Positions 33,274-40,227 of a stretch of 64,000 nucleotides of DNA are shown piece by piece. The DNA is from Betaproteobacteria bacterium (GTDB lineage: Bacteria > Pseudomonadota > Gammaproteobacteria > Burkholderiales > Burkholderiaceae). The notes beneath the pieces are model-generated. The model ran no database searches and was not told the DNA's origin. It worked only from the letters and a program-made list of their open reading frames with translations. Every line of letters starts with the position of its first letter. The stretch's first letter is position 1. The DNA is taken from NCBI GenBank assembly GCA_037137465.1, contig JBAXKF010000002.1:12075-76074 (forward strand), in the 5' to 3' direction. Both the position numbers and the translations under genes were made by a program.

Positions 33274-33723
33274 ATGAGCATTGTTGAAAATAAAAAAGCA
33301 TTTTTTGATTACTTTATCGAAGACCGTATCGAGGCGGGGCTCGTTCTTGAGGGGTGGGAAGTCAAAGCGATTCGGGCTGGTAGAGGCAATATTAAGGAAG
33401 CTTATGTTGTGATTCGGCAAGCAGAGCTTTATCTCATTGGTTGTCATATCAGCCCTTTGCCGGCAGCATCTACACATATCAACCCAGATCCTACAAGAAC
33501 ACGCAAGTTACTAATGCATTCTGAGCAAATCAATAAATGGATTGGAAAAGCTGAACAAAAAGGCTATACCCTCGTGCCCTTGAACCTGCATTATGCAAAA
33601 GGTCGCATTAAGTGCGAGATTGGTTTAGCTAAAGGGAAAAAGCAATTTGATAAACGAGAAACCGAGAAGGAAAGAGATTGGGTTCGGGAAAAAGCACAAA
33701 TTAGCCGAGGAAAATACGGTTAA
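33274..33723 (+). CDS. smpB: SsrA-binding protein
   Basis: [35 protein letters not shown]. Confidence 0.97.
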
Positions 33724-33729
33724 TTAAAC

Positions 33730-33746
33730 TGCACCATAGCAGTGCA
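33730..33746. promoter_or_regulatory. NtrC-like binding site upstream of the Anbu operon
   Basis: TGCACCATAGCAGTGCA versus consensus TGCACCA-N3-TGGTGCA (12/14 specified positions). Confidence 0.65.
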
Positions 33747-33805: not shown

Positions 33806-35221
33806 ATGATGACAAAACCTTACGATGAAATGTTCGATGAGCAAGGGCAAGCTCGAGCACATTACCGAGAATTTAATGATTGGCTCTCTCGCCAAAGCGA
33901 TAGTCATATCGCTTATAAGCGGGCCGAAGCTGAATTAATCTTCCGTCGTATTGGAATTACTTTTGCTGTATATGGTGATGAAAAAGGGACTGAACGTACA
34001 ATTCCTTTTGATCAAGTTCCACGAATTATTCCGGCAAAAGAATGGATGGTTCTGGAAGATGGTTTAAAACAACGCGTTAAAGCGCTGAATATGTTTTTGC
34101 ATGATATTTATCATGATGAAAAAATTCTCAAAGCAGGACTGATTCCTAAAGAGCAAATATTTAATAATTTGCAATATCGCCCTGAAATGCGATTTGTAGA
34201 TGTTCCTAGAAATATTTATGCTCATATCGCTGGCATTGATATTATCCGTGCAGGAGCTGGTGAGTATTATGTTTTAGAAGATAATTTACGTGTACCCTCC
34301 GGCGTATCTTATATGGTAGAAAATCGCAAAATGATGATGCGGTTATTCCCAGACTTATTTGAGAAACATCGAATCGCCCCCGTTGAGCACTATCCAGATT
34401 TGTTGTTACAGTGTTTAAAAACAGCAGTTCATTCTTCTGCTAAAAAACTTAATGTCGTCGTTTTAACTCCCGGGATGTTTAATTCCGCATACTTCGAACA
34501 CTCTTATCTGGCTCAGCAAATGGGTGTAGAACTTGTAGAGGGCAAGGATTTATTTGTCAAAAATGAACAAGTATTTATGCGAACTACCCAGGGCCCTCAA
34601 GTAGTGGATGTTATTTATCGGCGTATTGATGATGATTTTCTTGATCCTTTAGCTCTTCGTCCAGATTCAACGCTAGGTATTCCTGGCATATTGAATGCTT
34701 ATCGAGCAGGTAATGTTGGAATTTCTAATGCTATTGGAACTGGTATTGCGGATGACAAGTCTATTTATCCCTATGTACCCGATATGATTAAGTTTTATTT
34801 GAACGAAAAACCAATCTTACAAAATGTTCCCACTTTTCAGTGTCGCAAAAAAGAGGATTTGCAATATACTCTGGCGCACTTAAACGAGTTGGTCGTCAAA
34901 GAAACTCATGGTGCTGGAGGGTACGGGATGTTAATAGGTCCCTTAGCTACAGTTGCTGAGTTAGATAATTTTAGAAAGTATTTAATTGATCATCCAGATA
35001 AGTACATTGCTCAACCAACCCTTGCCTTATCAACTTGCCCTACTTTTGTTGAAGCAGGCATTGCACCAAGACATATTGATTTACGCCCTCTTGTTCTTTC
35101 AGGCAAGCAAATTACGATGGTTCAAGGAGGTCTAACTCGAGTCGCTTTAAAAGAAGGCTCTTTAGTCGTGAACTCTTCACAAGGTGGTGGCACTAAAGAT
35201 ACTTGGGTATTGGAGTCTTAA
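33806..35221 (+). CDS. Circularly permuted ATP-grasp type 2 protein
   Basis: GITFAVYG...ERTIPFD, VLEDNLRVPSGVSY, VIYRRIDD, N..GTGIADDK, VNSSQGGGTKDTWV. Confidence 0.93.
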   Translation: MMTKPYDEMFDEQGQARAHYREFNDWLSRQSDSHIAYKRAEAELIFRRIGITFAVYGDEKGTERTIPFDQVPRIIPAKEWMVLEDGLKQRVKALNMFLHDIYHDEKILKAGLIPKEQIFNNLQYRPEMRFVDVPRNIYAHIAGIDIIRAGAGEYYVLEDNLRVPSGVSYMVENRKMMMRLFPDLFEKHRIAPVEHYPDLLLQCLKTAVHSSAKKLNVVVLTPGMFNSAYFEHSYLAQQMGVELVEGKDLFVKNEQVFMRTTQGPQVVDVIYRRIDDDFLDPLALRPDSTLGIPGILNAYRAGNVGISNAIGTGIADDKSIYPYVPDMIKFYLNEKPILQNVPTFQCRKKEDLQYTLAHLNELVVKETHGAGGYGMLIGPLATVAELDNFRKYLIDHPDKYIAQPTLALSTCPTFVEAGIAPRHIDLRPLVLSGKQITMVQGGLTRVALKEGSLVVNSSQGGGTKDTWVLES

Positions 35222-36201
35222 TGCTGAGTAGAACCGCTGACTGCCTCTATTGGATGGCTCGTTATACAGAGCGTGCTGAGAATACTGCTCGCATGTTAGA
35301 TGTTGCTTACCAAACTTCTTTAATGCCTCAACCTAACGATTTTATGCAAGAAAGTTGGCGTAAGCTTTTGAATGTTTCTCTTTTAGAAAAACTATTTGAA
35401 AGTAAATATGTGGAGTACAACAGAGAAAACATACTTCAATTTATGATTTTTGATGATGATAATCCTTCTAGTATTGTTTGTTGTTTCAATGCGGCTCGTG
35501 TCAATGCAAGGATTATTAGGGGAAAAATCCCCTCTGAAGTTTGGGAAACACAAAATTTAAATTGGCTTAATATAAATAAGTTTCTTCCAGAAAGCCCATC
35601 CCATGATCCCTCGGCTTTTTTTGAGTGGGTAAAGTATCGTTGTCATTTATTCAGAGGTGTTGTTTTTGGAACCATGCTATCTAATGAAGCCCTACACTTT
35701 ATGGAGTTCGGAACCTATCTTGAGCGGGCTGATAATACGGCAAGAATCCTAAAAGCGAAATATCGCTCTTCGAATGATCAACATCAACAACAAATTAACC
35801 AAGCCAGTCTTTTTAAAATCGAAAATACGTCTGAAACTTTTGATTTTTATCATTGGGTATCCTTGTTAAGATCCGTATCTGCTTTTGAGATCTTCCGTCA
35901 AACCTATTCTGACCAAATTACCCCTGAGCGAATAGTTGACTTATTGGTTTTTAATAATCAACTTCCAAGGTCACTTACCAAATGTGTTGATCAACTCCTT
36001 TTGTTAATTACGTTATTAAAAAATAATAAGTCTAAAGAGATCGAAAGATTAATTGGTAAATTAAAGTCTGAGCTTGATTACTCAACAATTGATGACATTC
36101 ACAAGGATGGCTTGGATCAATTTATCCAACGGTTTTTAGAAAAAATTAATCATATTGCTGATGAGTTTAGTAGTATTTATTTAATCCCTTTGTCGGCTTA
36201 A
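35221..36201 (+). CDS. Alpha-E domain protein
   Basis: MLSRTAD.LYWMARYTERAEN and a second LERADNTAR repeat; TAATG coupling to the upstream gene. Confidence 0.93.
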   Translation: MLSRTADCLYWMARYTERAENTARMLDVAYQTSLMPQPNDFMQESWRKLLNVSLLEKLFESKYVEYNRENILQFMIFDDDNPSSIVCCFNAARVNARIIRGKIPSEVWETQNLNWLNINKFLPESPSHDPSAFFEWVKYRCHLFRGVVFGTMLSNEALHFMEFGTYLERADNTARILKAKYRSSNDQHQQQINQASLFKIENTSETFDFYHWVSLLRSVSAFEIFRQTYSDQITPERIVDLLVFNNQLPRSLTKCVDQLLLLITLLKNNKSKEIERLIGKLKSELDYSTIDDIHKDGLDQFIQRFLEKINHIADEFSSIYLIPLSA

Positions 36202-36205
36202 TCAT

Positions 36206-37000
36206 ATGAGATTAAAAATTACGCACCGTACTGAATACCTTTATGAACGCTTTGTTCATCATTCCATCCAAGAACTTCGCTTAACGCCACAAGATACTAA
36301 CAATCAACTCTTGGATCATTGGAAAATAACTGCCCCTAGTAAGATGACGGAATCAATCGATGCTTTTGGGAATGTGTGCCATGTTTTTGTTTTAGATAAT
36401 AACTATTCTGGAATGCTCATTGAAGCTCGCGGTGAAGTCTTTACAAAAGACCAGTATGTTTTTTCTGATCCTAAAGACGCGGTTTCACCGCTTTGCTTAT
36501 TACAACAAACCACGCTTACTGAACCGTCAGCTGAGATGATCCATAATTTTTCTACCTATATAGATAAGGATTTGACACCAGAGGATATGTTGAAAATAGG
36601 TATTCAAATTCAAAATGTAATTTCCTACGAGCAAGGTGCAACGAATACAAAAACCACAGCCGCAGATGCCTGGGAATTAAAAAAAGGTGTTTGCCAAGAT
36701 CAAGCCCACGTAATGTTAGGTCTATGTCGTTACTTGAAAATTCCTGCGAGATATGTAAGTGGCTTTTTTTATGCGGAAAATATGCCAAACCTCGCAAGTC
36801 ATGCCTGGGTAGATGTTTGTTTAGACTCTGATAATGCTATTTGGCATAGTATTGATATCACCAACGGCTGTTTCAGTAATGAGCATCATATTCGTTTAGC
36901 TATCGGCCGTGACTATGCTCACGTAGCTCCAGTCAAGGGAATTCGTTCTGGTGGTGGTGCTGAGGAGTTAATTACAAAAATCACTATAGAAAAGTGTTAA
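36206..37000 (+). CDS. Transglutaminase-like protein
   Basis: Triad GVCQD.AH (Cys), SHAW (His), DITN (Asp); GRDY...PV.G. Confidence 0.92.
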   Translation: MRLKITHRTEYLYERFVHHSIQELRLTPQDTNNQLLDHWKITAPSKMTESIDAFGNVCHVFVLDNNYSGMLIEARGEVFTKDQYVFSDPKDAVSPLCLLQQTTLTEPSAEMIHNFSTYIDKDLTPEDMLKIGIQIQNVISYEQGATNTKTTAADAWELKKGVCQDQAHVMLGLCRYLKIPARYVSGFFYAENMPNLASHAWVDVCLDSDNAIWHSIDITNGCFSNEHHIRLAIGRDYAHVAPVKGIRSGGGAEELITKITIEKC

Positions 37001-37032
37001 ATTGATACTGTTCAAACTTAATTAATTGATAA

Positions 37033-37833
37033 ATGACTTACTGTGTTGCTATTTGTTTAAAAGAAGGCCTTGTTTTTCTTTCCGATACCCGAACCAATGC
37101 TGGTGTGGATGATATTGGTACCTTTCGTAAAATGACCATTTATCAAGAAGGTCATGATCGTATTTTCACCTTATTAAGCGCCGGAAATCTAGCAATTACT
37201 CAATCTGTTAAAGAAATGCTGAGTCATGACATGACTTTTGAGGGTGTCAACCTTTGGAACGCAATGAGTACCTATGATGCTGCTGTAGTTGTAGGAATGG
37301 CTATTCGAAAAGTTAAAGAACGGGATGAAAAAGCCCTTGCTAATGCGGGTATTGAATTTAATTGTAGTTTTATTTTTGGTGGCCAAGTGGCTGGTGAGAA
37401 GCCTCGTTTATTCAATATTTACTCTGCAGGGAATTTTGTAGAGTCAACCCTTGAGACGTGCTACTTTCAGATAGGTGAGGCTAAATACGGCAAACCTATT
37501 CTAGATCGGGTCATTAATTACAATACTTCTCTTGATTTGGCAACGAAATCTGCTTTGATCTCGATGGACTCGACTTTGAAAAGTAATATCTCAGTTGGTC
37601 TGCCGCTTGATCTATTTGTGTACACAATCAATTCTTTTACTAAAGATAAAGCAATAACAATCGATGAGGCTAATCCTTATTTTGCAATGATTCGTAACCT
37701 TTGGGGTCAAAAATTAACTGAAATCGTGATGTCGATTCAAGAACCAAATTGGGACAACAACCCTGAGTTATTGCCTATTGTGACCGCCCCTCAACGACTA
37801 GGCCCAATTCCTTTGGTAAAGAATGAGGCCTAA
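37033..37833 (+). CDS. anbu: Anbu proteasome-type Ntn protease
   Basis: MTYCV (Thr1 nucleophile), SDTRTNAGVD, AGNLA.TQ, QIGE.KYGKPILDR, DSTLKSNISVG.P. Confidence 0.9.
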   Translation: MTYCVAICLKEGLVFLSDTRTNAGVDDIGTFRKMTIYQEGHDRIFTLLSAGNLAITQSVKEMLSHDMTFEGVNLWNAMSTYDAAVVVGMAIRKVKERDEKALANAGIEFNCSFIFGGQVAGEKPRLFNIYSAGNFVESTLETCYFQIGEAKYGKPILDRVINYNTSLDLATKSALISMDSTLKSNISVGLPLDLFVYTINSFTKDKAITIDEANPYFAMIRNLWGQKLTEIVMSIQEPNWDNNPELLPIVTAPQRLGPIPLVKNEA

Positions 37834-37845
37834 TCATCGAGCAGT

Positions 37846-40227
37846 TTAGACTTTGGCTAAATCTTCCCAAGTTTTGATGACTGTGTCTGGATTTAAGGAT
37901 ATCGATGTGATTCCTTTTGCCATTAGCCACCTTGCAAAATCGGGGTGATCTGAAGGGCCTTGACCGCAAATGCCGATGTATTTCCCTTTACTCAGGCATG
38001 CGTTAATTGCTTTTTCGATGAGATACAAAATTGCTGGATCTCGTTCATCAAAATCAATAGCTAATAACTCCATCCCTGAATCACGATCTAACCCTAAGGT
38101 AAGCTGCGTCAAATCATTTGACCCGATTGAAAAACCGTCAAAATGCTCTAAAAACTCTTCTGCCAAAATTGCATTGGAAGGAATTTCACACATCATCACA
38201 ATTTTTAAATCATCCTGTCCACGTTTAAGTCCATTTGCTGCTAATAATTGAATCACCTTTTCTGCTTGTTTGACTGTTCTAACAAATGGAATCATGATTT
38301 CAACATTCGATAGGCCCATATCATTTCGTACTCGTTTGATCGCGGTACATTCCATTTCAAAGGCTTTTGCAAAATCGGCTGATAGATAGCGGGAAGCTCC
38401 TCTAAAACCAAGCATCGGATTTTCTTCATCAGGTTCATACCGCGAACCTCCAATCAGTTTTTTATACTCATTGGATTTAAAGTCTGATAATCTGACAATC
38501 ACAGGTTTTGGAAAGAATGCAGCTGCAATGGTTGCTATTCCTTCAGCTAATTTATCAACATAAAATGCCTGTGGGCTAGCATGCCCTCTAGCAACACTCT
38601 CTACTGCTGTTTTTAAATCAGAATCAACATTAGGGTATTGCAAAATTGCGCTTGGGTGAACGCCAATATTGTTGTTAATGATAAATTCAAGGCGCGCTAA
38701 GCCAACTCCTTGATTTGGTATTTGACAAAAATTGAATGCCAACTGTGGATTGCCCACATTCATCATAATTTTGACGGGGATTTGCGGTAAGACGCCACGA
38801 TGCACTTCACTCACTTCTGTTTCTATGAGGCCGTCATAAATTTTTCCTTCATCACCTTCCGCGCAAGATACCGTAACCATGGCTCCTTCTTTGAGGACTT
38901 CAGTAGCATCTCCACAACCAACTACCGCAGGAACGCCAAGTTCTCTTGCAATAATAGCTGCATGGCAAGTTCTTCCACCTCGATTAGTAACAATTGCAGA
39001 AGCTCTCTTCATCACCGGTTCCCAATTTGGGTCTGTCATGTCTGCAACTAATACATCTCCAGGTTGAACACGGTCCATTTCTGATGGGTCGTGAATGATT
39101 CTGACAGGGCCAGCACCAATCTTCTGACCAATAGCCCTTCCGTGGGTTAAGACGGTTGAATTACCTTTAAGCTGGTATTTGAGTTCAACTTTATTACCAG
39201 ATTGACTTCTAACGGTCTCCGGTCTTGCTTGCAAGATATAAATTTTCCCGTCTACACCATCTTTACCCCATTCAATATCCATAGGTCTTTGATAATGCTC
39301 TTCAATGATGAGCGCGTATTTCGCTAATTCAATAACATCATCATCATTTAATGAGTAACGATTTCTAGATTCAAGTGGCACATCAACTGTTTTTACTCGC
39401 CCTTCTTCACCGGATTGCGTAAACCTCATTTGAACCAACTTAGAACCTAAGTTGCGACGAATGATTGGAAATTTACCATTACGTAACGATGGCTTGAATA
39501 CGTAATATTCATCAGGGTTCACCGCACCTTGTACAACTGTTTCACCTAAACCATAACTAGAAGTAATAAAAATAGCATCGTTAAAACCAGATTCGGTATC
39601 TAGAGTGAACATGACGCCAGATGATGCTTTATCTGATCGAACCATTTTTTGAATACCTGCAGATAATGCGACTTCCGCGTGTAAAAAGCCCTTATGGACA
39701 CGATAAGATATTGCTCTGTCGTTATAGAGTGAGGCAAATACCTCTTTAATGCGGATTAATACATCCTCTATGCCAACGACATTCAAATAACTTTCTTGCT
39801 GTCCAGCAAACGATGCATCAGGAAGATCTTCAGCAGTTGCAGAAGACCTTACGGCAAATGAGCCATTTCCATCTGCATCTAACTTGGAAAATGCGGCTCT
39901 TATCTCAGTTTCAAGGCGCTCTTGCAGGGGTACCTGAACTATCCAGCTTCTGATATCTTGCCCTGCTGCTGCTAAAGCCTTCACATCATCGGTGTTTAGG
40001 CCGACTAAGCGATCAATGATTTTTTGCGTTAATTGATGATGATCTAAAAAGTCACGAAAAGCCAATGCCGTAGTGGCAAATCCAGTTGGTACTCGAACTC
40101 CTTTAGAATGAAGCTGTGAAATCATTTCTCCTAAGGATGAATTTTTGCCGCCGACGATTTCAACGTCAGCCATGCGAAGCTCCTCAAAAGGAATGACATA
40201 TGTATTTTGATGTGACACTGTAGACAT
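37846..40227 (-). CDS. ppsA: Phosphoenolpyruvate synthase
   Basis: [46 protein letters not shown]. Confidence 0.98.

Follow-up and report, generated by a model that had tools for sequence, protein, structure and literature searches.

The Anbu operon, which joins genes for an ATP-grasp enzyme (CP-ATP-grasp), an Alpha-E protein, a transglutaminase-like protein and the proteasome-related hydrolase Anbu, owes its definition to comparative genomics (Valas and Bourne 2008 and Iyer et al. 2009, through PMC5666114 and PMC6376114), and the same two structural papers relate that it was predicted to be a peptide-synthesis or tagging system. The canonical examples are those of the Pseudomonas aeruginosa PA1733 region and of Yersinia bercovieri (Fuchs et al. 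2017, PMC5666114; Piasecka et al. 2018, PMC6376114). The Yersinia ATP-grasp protein releases phosphate from ATP (PMC6376114), and Thr1 of P. aeruginosa Anbu (Pa-Anbu) binds or reacts with proteasome inhibitors (PMC5666114). Anbu was found to be upregulated in nitrogen-limited Pseudomonas putida (Hervas 2008, as cited in PMC5666114 and PMC6376114), the domains of the operon vary together with those of urea metabolism across marine metagenomes (PMC3597751), and in Burkholderia cenocepacia H111 a ligase/Alpha-E/transglutaminase cluster (I35_5080–5083) is among the genes most strongly dependent on NtrC and σ54 (PMC5491218). The function of the operon has been unexplained since 2008, and our literature search found no newer functional work on it after the structural and bioinformatic papers of 2017–2021. 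Here we describe a complete Anbu operon in a stretch of 64,000 nucleotides (the window; contig JBAXKF010000002.1 of assembly GCA_037137465.1) and propose, with a probability of roughly 0.6, that it is a functional unit activated by NtrC which ligates and cuts amides for nitrogen recycling.

The operon of the window resembles the canonical one in its four genes, their order and strand, in an Anbu of the Anbu-1 type with Thr1, Asp17 and Lys32 and a near-identical S1 pocket, in the lack of an AAA+ partner and in the link to nitrogen limitation. It differs in its host, a small-genome freshwater Polynucleobacter, in a predicted NtrC dyad lying close to the first gene where neither a σ54 promoter nor rpoN was found, and in its fixed slot between smpB and ppsA. 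The B. cenocepacia cluster, also from the Burkholderiaceae, encodes DUF404/407, DUF403, transglutaminase-like and large transglutaminase-like proteins and shares with the window the ligase and Alpha-E core, a transglutaminase-like protein and a place in the NtrC regulon, which is here predicted from the dyad; it differs in being σ54-dependent and in ending with a large transglutaminase/DUF2126-type protein instead of Anbu (PMC5491218). The system is thus known and widespread and this copy adds no new component to it; worth keeping are the conserved dyad, the polymorphism of the cassette between smpB and ppsA, and the apparent genus-wide loss of the σ54 route. A reading of the window made from its letters alone (the sequence-only reading) had named as known the peptide-synthesis or tagging prediction, an Anbu without identified substrate and the induction in nitrogen-limited P. 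putida, all of which agree with the literature (PMC5666114, PMC6376114).

The four genes and their products

The host genome (G000) is a 2.44-Mb draft of 113 contigs, 98.7% complete, and, to judge from related loci in named genomes, the host is a Polynucleobacter (Burkholderiaceae); the record nearest to the window is a freshwater metagenome-assembled genome with a 98% identical Anbu. The list of open reading frames and a Pfam scan gave the canonical order of ATP-grasp, Alpha-E, transglutaminase-like and Anbu genes, all co-oriented (Table 1). This order was complete in 66 of 72 Polynucleobacter-type loci, which argues that the arrangement is not due to chance. The stop codon of the ATP-grasp gene and the start codon of the Alpha-E gene overlap in TAATG (35219–35223, a junction of −1 bp), the Alpha-E and transglutaminase-like genes are separated by 4 bp (36202–36205), and the latter and the Anbu gene by 32 bp (37001–37032). 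These distances were read from the sequence as the sequence-only reading had given them, and its claims of a complete four-gene operon with an intact Cys-His-Asp triad and Anbu Thr1 were borne out by the domains, order and strand of the genes and by the invariance of both sites among orthologues.

The ATP-grasp protein matched the whole of PF14403 (E 2e-160, profile positions 1–374 of 374) as well as PF04174 (E 4e-152), aligned over residues 3–470 with PDB entry 3N6X, deposited as 'putative glutathionylspermidine synthase' (E 1e-209), and was 76–98% identical across Polynucleobacter; it is predicted to be a carboxylate-amine ligase. Its presumed partner, the all-helical Alpha-E protein (PF04168, E 1e-91), carries two invariant ER motifs (E17-R18 and E168-R169). 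The gene caller extended its frame to a TTG at 35203, and since each of the 32 aligned orthologues begins with MLSRTADC, the start was placed at the ATG at 35221. An AlphaFold2 model built from the alignment of the 32 orthologues reached a predicted local distance difference test score of 77 and a predicted template modelling score of 0.76; Foldseek found no PDB neighbour for it (best E 0.44, TM-score 0.22), and a sequence search of the PDB gave no match. In the transglutaminase-like protein, which ends in ITIEKC and so has no run of glutamines at its C-terminus, the triad consists of Cys163 (GVCQD), His199 (SHAWV) and Asp217 (SIDIT), is invariant in 72 orthologues and aligns with the GVC(Q/R)D, H and D of PDB entry 3ISR (E 2e-12). 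None of the four proteins was assigned to a named NCBIfam family.

Anbu matched five solved Anbu structures (5LOY, 5NYW, 5NYJ, 5NYF and 5LOX; E 2e-77 to 2e-63, best 5LOY, Cons-Anbu), with which its C-terminal helix region also aligns. The protein begins MTYCV, with Thr1 directly after the start methionine and no propeptide, and 72 orthologues all share its Thr1, Asp17 and Lys32. Its S1-pocket positions (T20, F30, S48, L52, T55) differ from those of Pa-Anbu (T20, F30, T48, L52, S55; PMC5666114) by two exchanges, both conservative, and form the amphiphilic pocket of Anbu-1, unlike the basic pocket of Anbu-2. By homology the protein is a proteasome-beta-like N-terminal nucleophile (Ntn) hydrolase of subtype Anbu-1. 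It was the sole match to PF00227 in the host genome, where this search found no HslV; the E. coli genome used as a control does match PF00227. Outside the genus, the Anbu proteins of Rhizobacter, Piscinibacter and related metagenome-assembled genomes (L105–L112) were 55–57% identical to that of the window and look like products of stand-alone genes, no homologue of the ATP-grasp, Alpha-E or transglutaminase-like proteins having been found within up to 10 kb on either side (E <1e-5).

The ratio of nonsynonymous to synonymous substitution rates (dN/dS), measured against the closest relative (dS ~0.3–0.4), was low for each gene of the operon (Table 1), and all four are under strong purifying selection. 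The catalytic residues (the triad, Anbu Thr1/Asp17/Lys32 and the Alpha-E ER motifs) were invariant in 67–72 Polynucleobacter orthologues, which together with the low dN/dS indicates that the operon is functional in this genome. As judged from its domains, residues and gene order, the locus thus represents the canonical operon with an Anbu-1 hydrolase, in a functional form. The retention in a streamlined genome that the sequence-only reading had found striking is real (dN/dS 0.03–0.09) but not universal among congeners, since three complete or near-complete genomes are without the operon, one has two of the genes and one has all of them frameshifted.

The upstream dyad, NtrC and σ54

The spacer of 82 bp between the smpB stop codon and the ATP-grasp start codon contains a 17-bp dyad, TGCACCATAGCAGTGCA, 59 nt before the ATG, which agrees with the NtrC (NR-I) consensus TGCACCA-N3-TGGTGCA at 12 of the 14 specified positions. 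When 69 distinct smpB/ATP-grasp spacers were aligned, 63 contained a match to the consensus with at most three mismatches, compared with one of 1380 shuffles. Across 67 orthologous spacers the dyad took the form TGCAC-N7-GTGCA, with outer pentamers more than 94% conserved and a variable centre, suggesting a protein-binding site rather than an RNA stem; as a terminator hairpin of smpB the dyad was rejected, its folding energy (−6.7 kcal/mol, z 0.26) being no better than that of shuffles. An exact TGCAC-N7-GTGCA occurs at only two sites in the 2.44-Mb genome, the operon dyad and a position some 98 bp upstream of glnA, with which glnA-ntrB-ntrC begins, and the complete genome of a congener (G005) gave the same result, with two exact dyads only, before the ATP-grasp gene and before glnA. 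A relaxed search with the NR-I consensus, which is enterobacterial, allowing up to two mismatches, returned five intergenic matches: glnA, a porin-glnK-amtB unit, the divergent region of nitrate assimilation, the Anbu operon and C21:32655. The core GCAC-N7-GTGC was not enriched genome-wide (11 matches, compared with 11–28 for control patterns), so that the information comes solely from the extended dyad and from where it lies. The copy of the operon that lies elsewhere in congener G015 (see below) still carries the dyad. From this pattern of conservation the operon has a predicted NtrC-type control element of its own, kept across the genus, and the predicted NtrC regulon is very small, with the operon standing beside glnA, amtB and nitrate assimilation.

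Several further features of these sites were recorded. The dyads at C32:475 and C4:25463 lie before a TorF-family porin-glnK-amtB unit and in the divergent promoter region of nitrate/nitrite assimilation, and the fifth match (C21:32655) adjoins a gene for a Bug-type binding protein. In most Polynucleobacter spacers (e.g. L014, L046 and L077) the first dyad is followed at a distance of 21 bp by another conserved element, GGCACCAAGC(T/C)GCTTCA, which may be a second NtrC site, and an almost invariant AAAGGCATTAGTTTGTAACTATG extends into the start codon; the lineage of the window has neither.

NtrC itself (equivalog TIGR01818, 599 bits) and NtrB are encoded in the host genome, with glnA-ntrB-ntrC at C9:45569–49636 of G000 (loci L113 and L123). 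The DNA-binding domain of σ54 was not found anywhere in this genome, and the loop by which NtrC contacts σ54 reads GAFANA in place of GAFTGA. The rpoN gene is missing from 13 of the 25 Polynucleobacter genomes. In most NtrC proteins of the genus, including those of some rpoN-bearing genomes, the loop reads GAFPGA (most congeners), GAFQGA, GAFLGA or GAFANA; all 16 other genera of the order have kept rpoN and a GAFTGA or GSFTGA loop. NtrC seems to have become uncoupled from σ54 across the whole genus. In the spacer of the window no σ54 promoter of the −24/−12 type (GG-N10-GC) was present, and near-matches of the form GG-N9-GC were dropped as candidates because rpoN is absent; with neither the element nor the sigma factor, the classical σ54 mode is inapplicable here. 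Three relatives outside the genus have canonical σ54 promoters 39–64 nt before the start codon of the same operon (e.g. TGGCACAACCGTTGCA). These promoters, taken with the Polynucleobacter dyad, suggest that nitrogen control of the operon is conserved across the order and has been kept despite a changed transcription machinery, the promoter of the Polynucleobacter operon seeming to have been rewired to σ54-independent NtrC. A comparable case is described in Rhodobacter capsulatus and Caulobacter, where NtrC lacks GAFTGA and acts at σ70 promoters, and where glnA and further nitrogen genes are likewise controlled by an NtrC orthologue that has no functional GAFTGA loop (PMC10274813). The two cases differ in that the loop is deleted there and substituted in Polynucleobacter (GAFANA here, mostly GAFPGA), and in that about half of Polynucleobacter have lost rpoN itself. 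The dyad and promoter evidence fits the published induction under nitrogen limitation.

Proposed function and alternatives

Under nitrogen limitation, phosphorylated NtrC would activate transcription of the operon, probably at a σ70-type promoter, given that rpoN is absent from the host and that its NtrC loop departs from GAFTGA (GAFANA). The ATP-grasp/Alpha-E complex would spend ATP, by way of an acyl-phosphate, on an amide or isopeptide linkage to a protein or peptide, and the Cys-His-Asp transglutaminase-like enzyme and Thr1 of Anbu would cut amide bonds of the product or of the tagged substrate, so that the net role would be to turn over amino-acid nitrogen and recycle it in times of nitrogen shortage. 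That ATP-grasp and Alpha-E work together is suggested by locus L029 of a relative (G039:C2:37001–57000), at which they are fused into a single protein of 863 aa, and by a congener (G020) that keeps just these two genes. At L029 a B. cenocepacia-like module (ATP-grasp, Alpha-E and a 1121-aa transglutaminase+DUF2126 protein) and an Anbu module (the fusion protein, transglutaminase and Anbu) stand side by side. The hydrolases vary elsewhere too, the transglutaminase being missing in G006, G026 and G027 and Anbu in G020 and in B. cenocepacia, which indirectly supports the view that the hydrolase modules are exchangeable.

Several observations weigh against this proposal. The binding of NtrC to the dyad is a prediction from sequence alone, and no convincing −35/−10 pair was found by a σ70 scan in the 59 nt between the dyad and the ATG (11 promoter sites were returned, compared with 19 expected). 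The absence of rpoN was read from a draft of 113 contigs, yet 12 other congeners, some with complete genomes, also lack it. Neither a consensus scan (7 terminator-like sites compared with 4.6 +/- 2.4 expected) nor folding of the spacer revealed a terminator after smpB, and with no such site or stable hairpin, transcription may run on from smpB into the operon. The operon is also not indispensable, being absent from several free-living congeners. In addition, Anbu cleaves no standard proteasome substrate, and no stable complex was found among the four operon proteins (PMC6376114).

A protein or peptide is our preferred target of the ligase, at somewhat less than even odds. Rather unlikely, but the strongest of the competing explanations, is that the operon synthesises and cleaves a small-molecule amide, for example a conjugate of the peptide or polyamine type, and does not act on proteins at all. 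Its logic would be that of glutathionylspermidine synthetase/amidase, in which the product of an ATP-grasp synthetase is reversed by a papain-like Cys amidase, with Anbu as a second amidase. The closest solved ligase structure, 3N6X, was deposited under just such a name, the spacers of 82, 4 and 32 bp leave no room for a gene encoding a tag protein, the Pfam scan of the window revealed no AAA+ unfoldase nearby, Anbu is inactive on proteasome peptide substrates (PMC6376114), and the bacterial Ntr regulon consists mostly of scavenging functions. Against a small amide stand the architecture of Pa-Anbu, a multi-subunit split ring with many active sites that binds peptide-like proteasome inhibitors, and the preference of its authors for protein degradation (PMC5666114); moreover, the operon contains no transporter or further catabolic enzyme.

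More doubtful still is a dedicated protein-recycling machine for nitrogen starvation, in which ATP-grasp and Alpha-E would mark proteins or peptides in a Pup-like manner with a group attached by an isopeptide bond and Anbu and the transglutaminase-like enzyme would degrade or unmark them, setting amino-acid nitrogen free, and which would form one of only about four transcription units under σ54-independent NtrC, together with glnA-ntrBC, glnK-amtB and nitrate assimilation, in a host genome in which neither rpoN nor HslV was found. The Pup-proteasome of Actinobacteria resembles the operon in combining an ATP-dependent carboxylate-amine ligase with a Thr1 hydrolase of the proteasome family and an amide-cleaving partner, and it too is linked to survival of nitrogen starvation. 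It differs in its Pup tag, AAA+ unfoldase and alpha/beta barrel and in its ligase, which is glutamine-synthetase-like and not of the ATP-grasp type. The operon and its surroundings include neither a gene for a Pup-type tag, for which the spacers are too short, nor one for an AAA+ unfoldase, the neighbours being smpB and ppsA, and the resemblance is one of logic only, not of membership.

That the operon serves for nitrogen storage, its ligase assembling a polymer as cyanophycin synthetase does and its two hydrolases mobilising that polymer, is improbable. Such a role would account for an ATP-grasp ligase and hydrolases in one unit tied to nitrogen status, but induction by nitrogen starvation has the wrong sign for building a store (PMC5666114; PMC5491218), and the single ATP-grasp module shows no resemblance to cyanophycin synthetase, the PDB search having returned only 3N6X.

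A cassette between smpB and ppsA

The sequence-only reading had further pointed to the position of the operon directly behind smpB (trans-translation tagging) and raised a link to it as no more than inference. Spelled out, such a link would have the operon act with smpB and trans-translation, for example by processing or removing ssrA-type tags, and be co-transcribed with smpB for that reason. We regard this as very improbable. In its favour, all 62 Polynucleobacter loci that reach far enough upstream have smpB before the ATP-grasp gene, in the same orientation and with gaps of 87–167 bp, and no stable terminator separates the two. The synteny check that was proposed for relatives gave adjacency in each of these loci but in none of five other operon-bearing genera of the order that were examined (G026, G027, G033, G037 and G039), where the operon and smpB are located on different contigs. 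Even within Polynucleobacter, five congeners (G013, G023, G001, G015 and G006) have nothing in the slot, so that smpB faces ppsA directly; the operon of G015 lies about 290 kb from smpB, and G006 has a transglutaminase-less version elsewhere in its genome. The distributions also disagree: smpB is near-universal (40 of 41 genomes, compared with 23 of 41 for Anbu) and the operon is patchy, with roughly one in three congeners and 9 of the 17 genera lacking it, which argues that the adjacency is inherited in one genus and is no evidence of a functional link to trans-translation. Finally, the operon has its own conserved dyad, common to nitrogen-assimilation genes. The smpB neighbourhood is accordingly an accident of position that has been kept within the genus, and the combined observations strengthen the case for a role in nitrogen economy and remove the unsupported link to trans-translation.

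The operon behaves as a discrete 4-kb cassette, present or absent between smpB and the convergent ppsA, which is collinear across Polynucleobacter loci. In G020 (L120, C80:1–16000), only ATP-grasp and Alpha-E lie between smpB and ppsA, a natural two-gene 'ligase only' version. In G022, a congener with a 1.55-Mb genome (L030, C1:971501–991500), all four operon genes and ppsA are frameshifted and Alpha-E also lacks residues 182–258, with smpB intact and the NtrC dyad retained. In a culturable genus with small genomes, a single fixed place on the chromosome is therefore found with the operon intact, missing, truncated or reduced to pseudogenes, and this natural variation offers handles on the function of the operon. 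Such losses, truncations and frameshifts in some congeners could suggest that the cluster of the window is itself a functionless, decaying remnant, but this was ruled out for the present genome by four open frames, dN/dS values of 0.025–0.09, as low as that of smpB, and invariant catalytic residues.

Table 1. Features of the Anbu operon region: coordinates in the window, strand, dN/dS and assignment
Feature	Position	Strand	dN/dS	Assignment
smpB	33274–33723	+	0.040 (comparison)	PF01668 (E 2e-56); upstream neighbour, outside the system
NtrC (NR-I)-type dyad TGCACCATAGCAGTGCA	33730–33746			Predicted site in the smpB/ATP-grasp spacer
ATP-grasp gene	33806–35221	+	0.025	471 aa; CP_ATPgrasp_2 (PF14403)
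Alpha-E gene	35221–36201	+	0.033	326 aa; PF04168
Transglutaminase-like gene	36206–37000	+	0.091 (highest of the four operon genes)	264 aa; Bact_transglu_N (PF08379) and Transglut_core (PF01841)
Anbu gene	37033–37833	+	0.037	266 aa; solved Anbu structures in PDB
ppsA (phosphoenolpyruvate synthase)	37846–40227	−		PF01326, PF00391, PF02896; convergent, bounds the cassette downstream

Around the cassette, the Pfam scan of the window identified ratA and rnfH divergent from smpB, and ppsR beyond ppsA; Rfam matched no RNA family anywhere in the window, and hence no glutamine riboswitch. The stop codons of Anbu and ppsA are separated by 12 bp. At this boundary, the Polynucleobacter necessarius isolate PPGSP2 (L067, LT606947.1) has an intact Anbu operon and an adjoining ppsA split into two frames.

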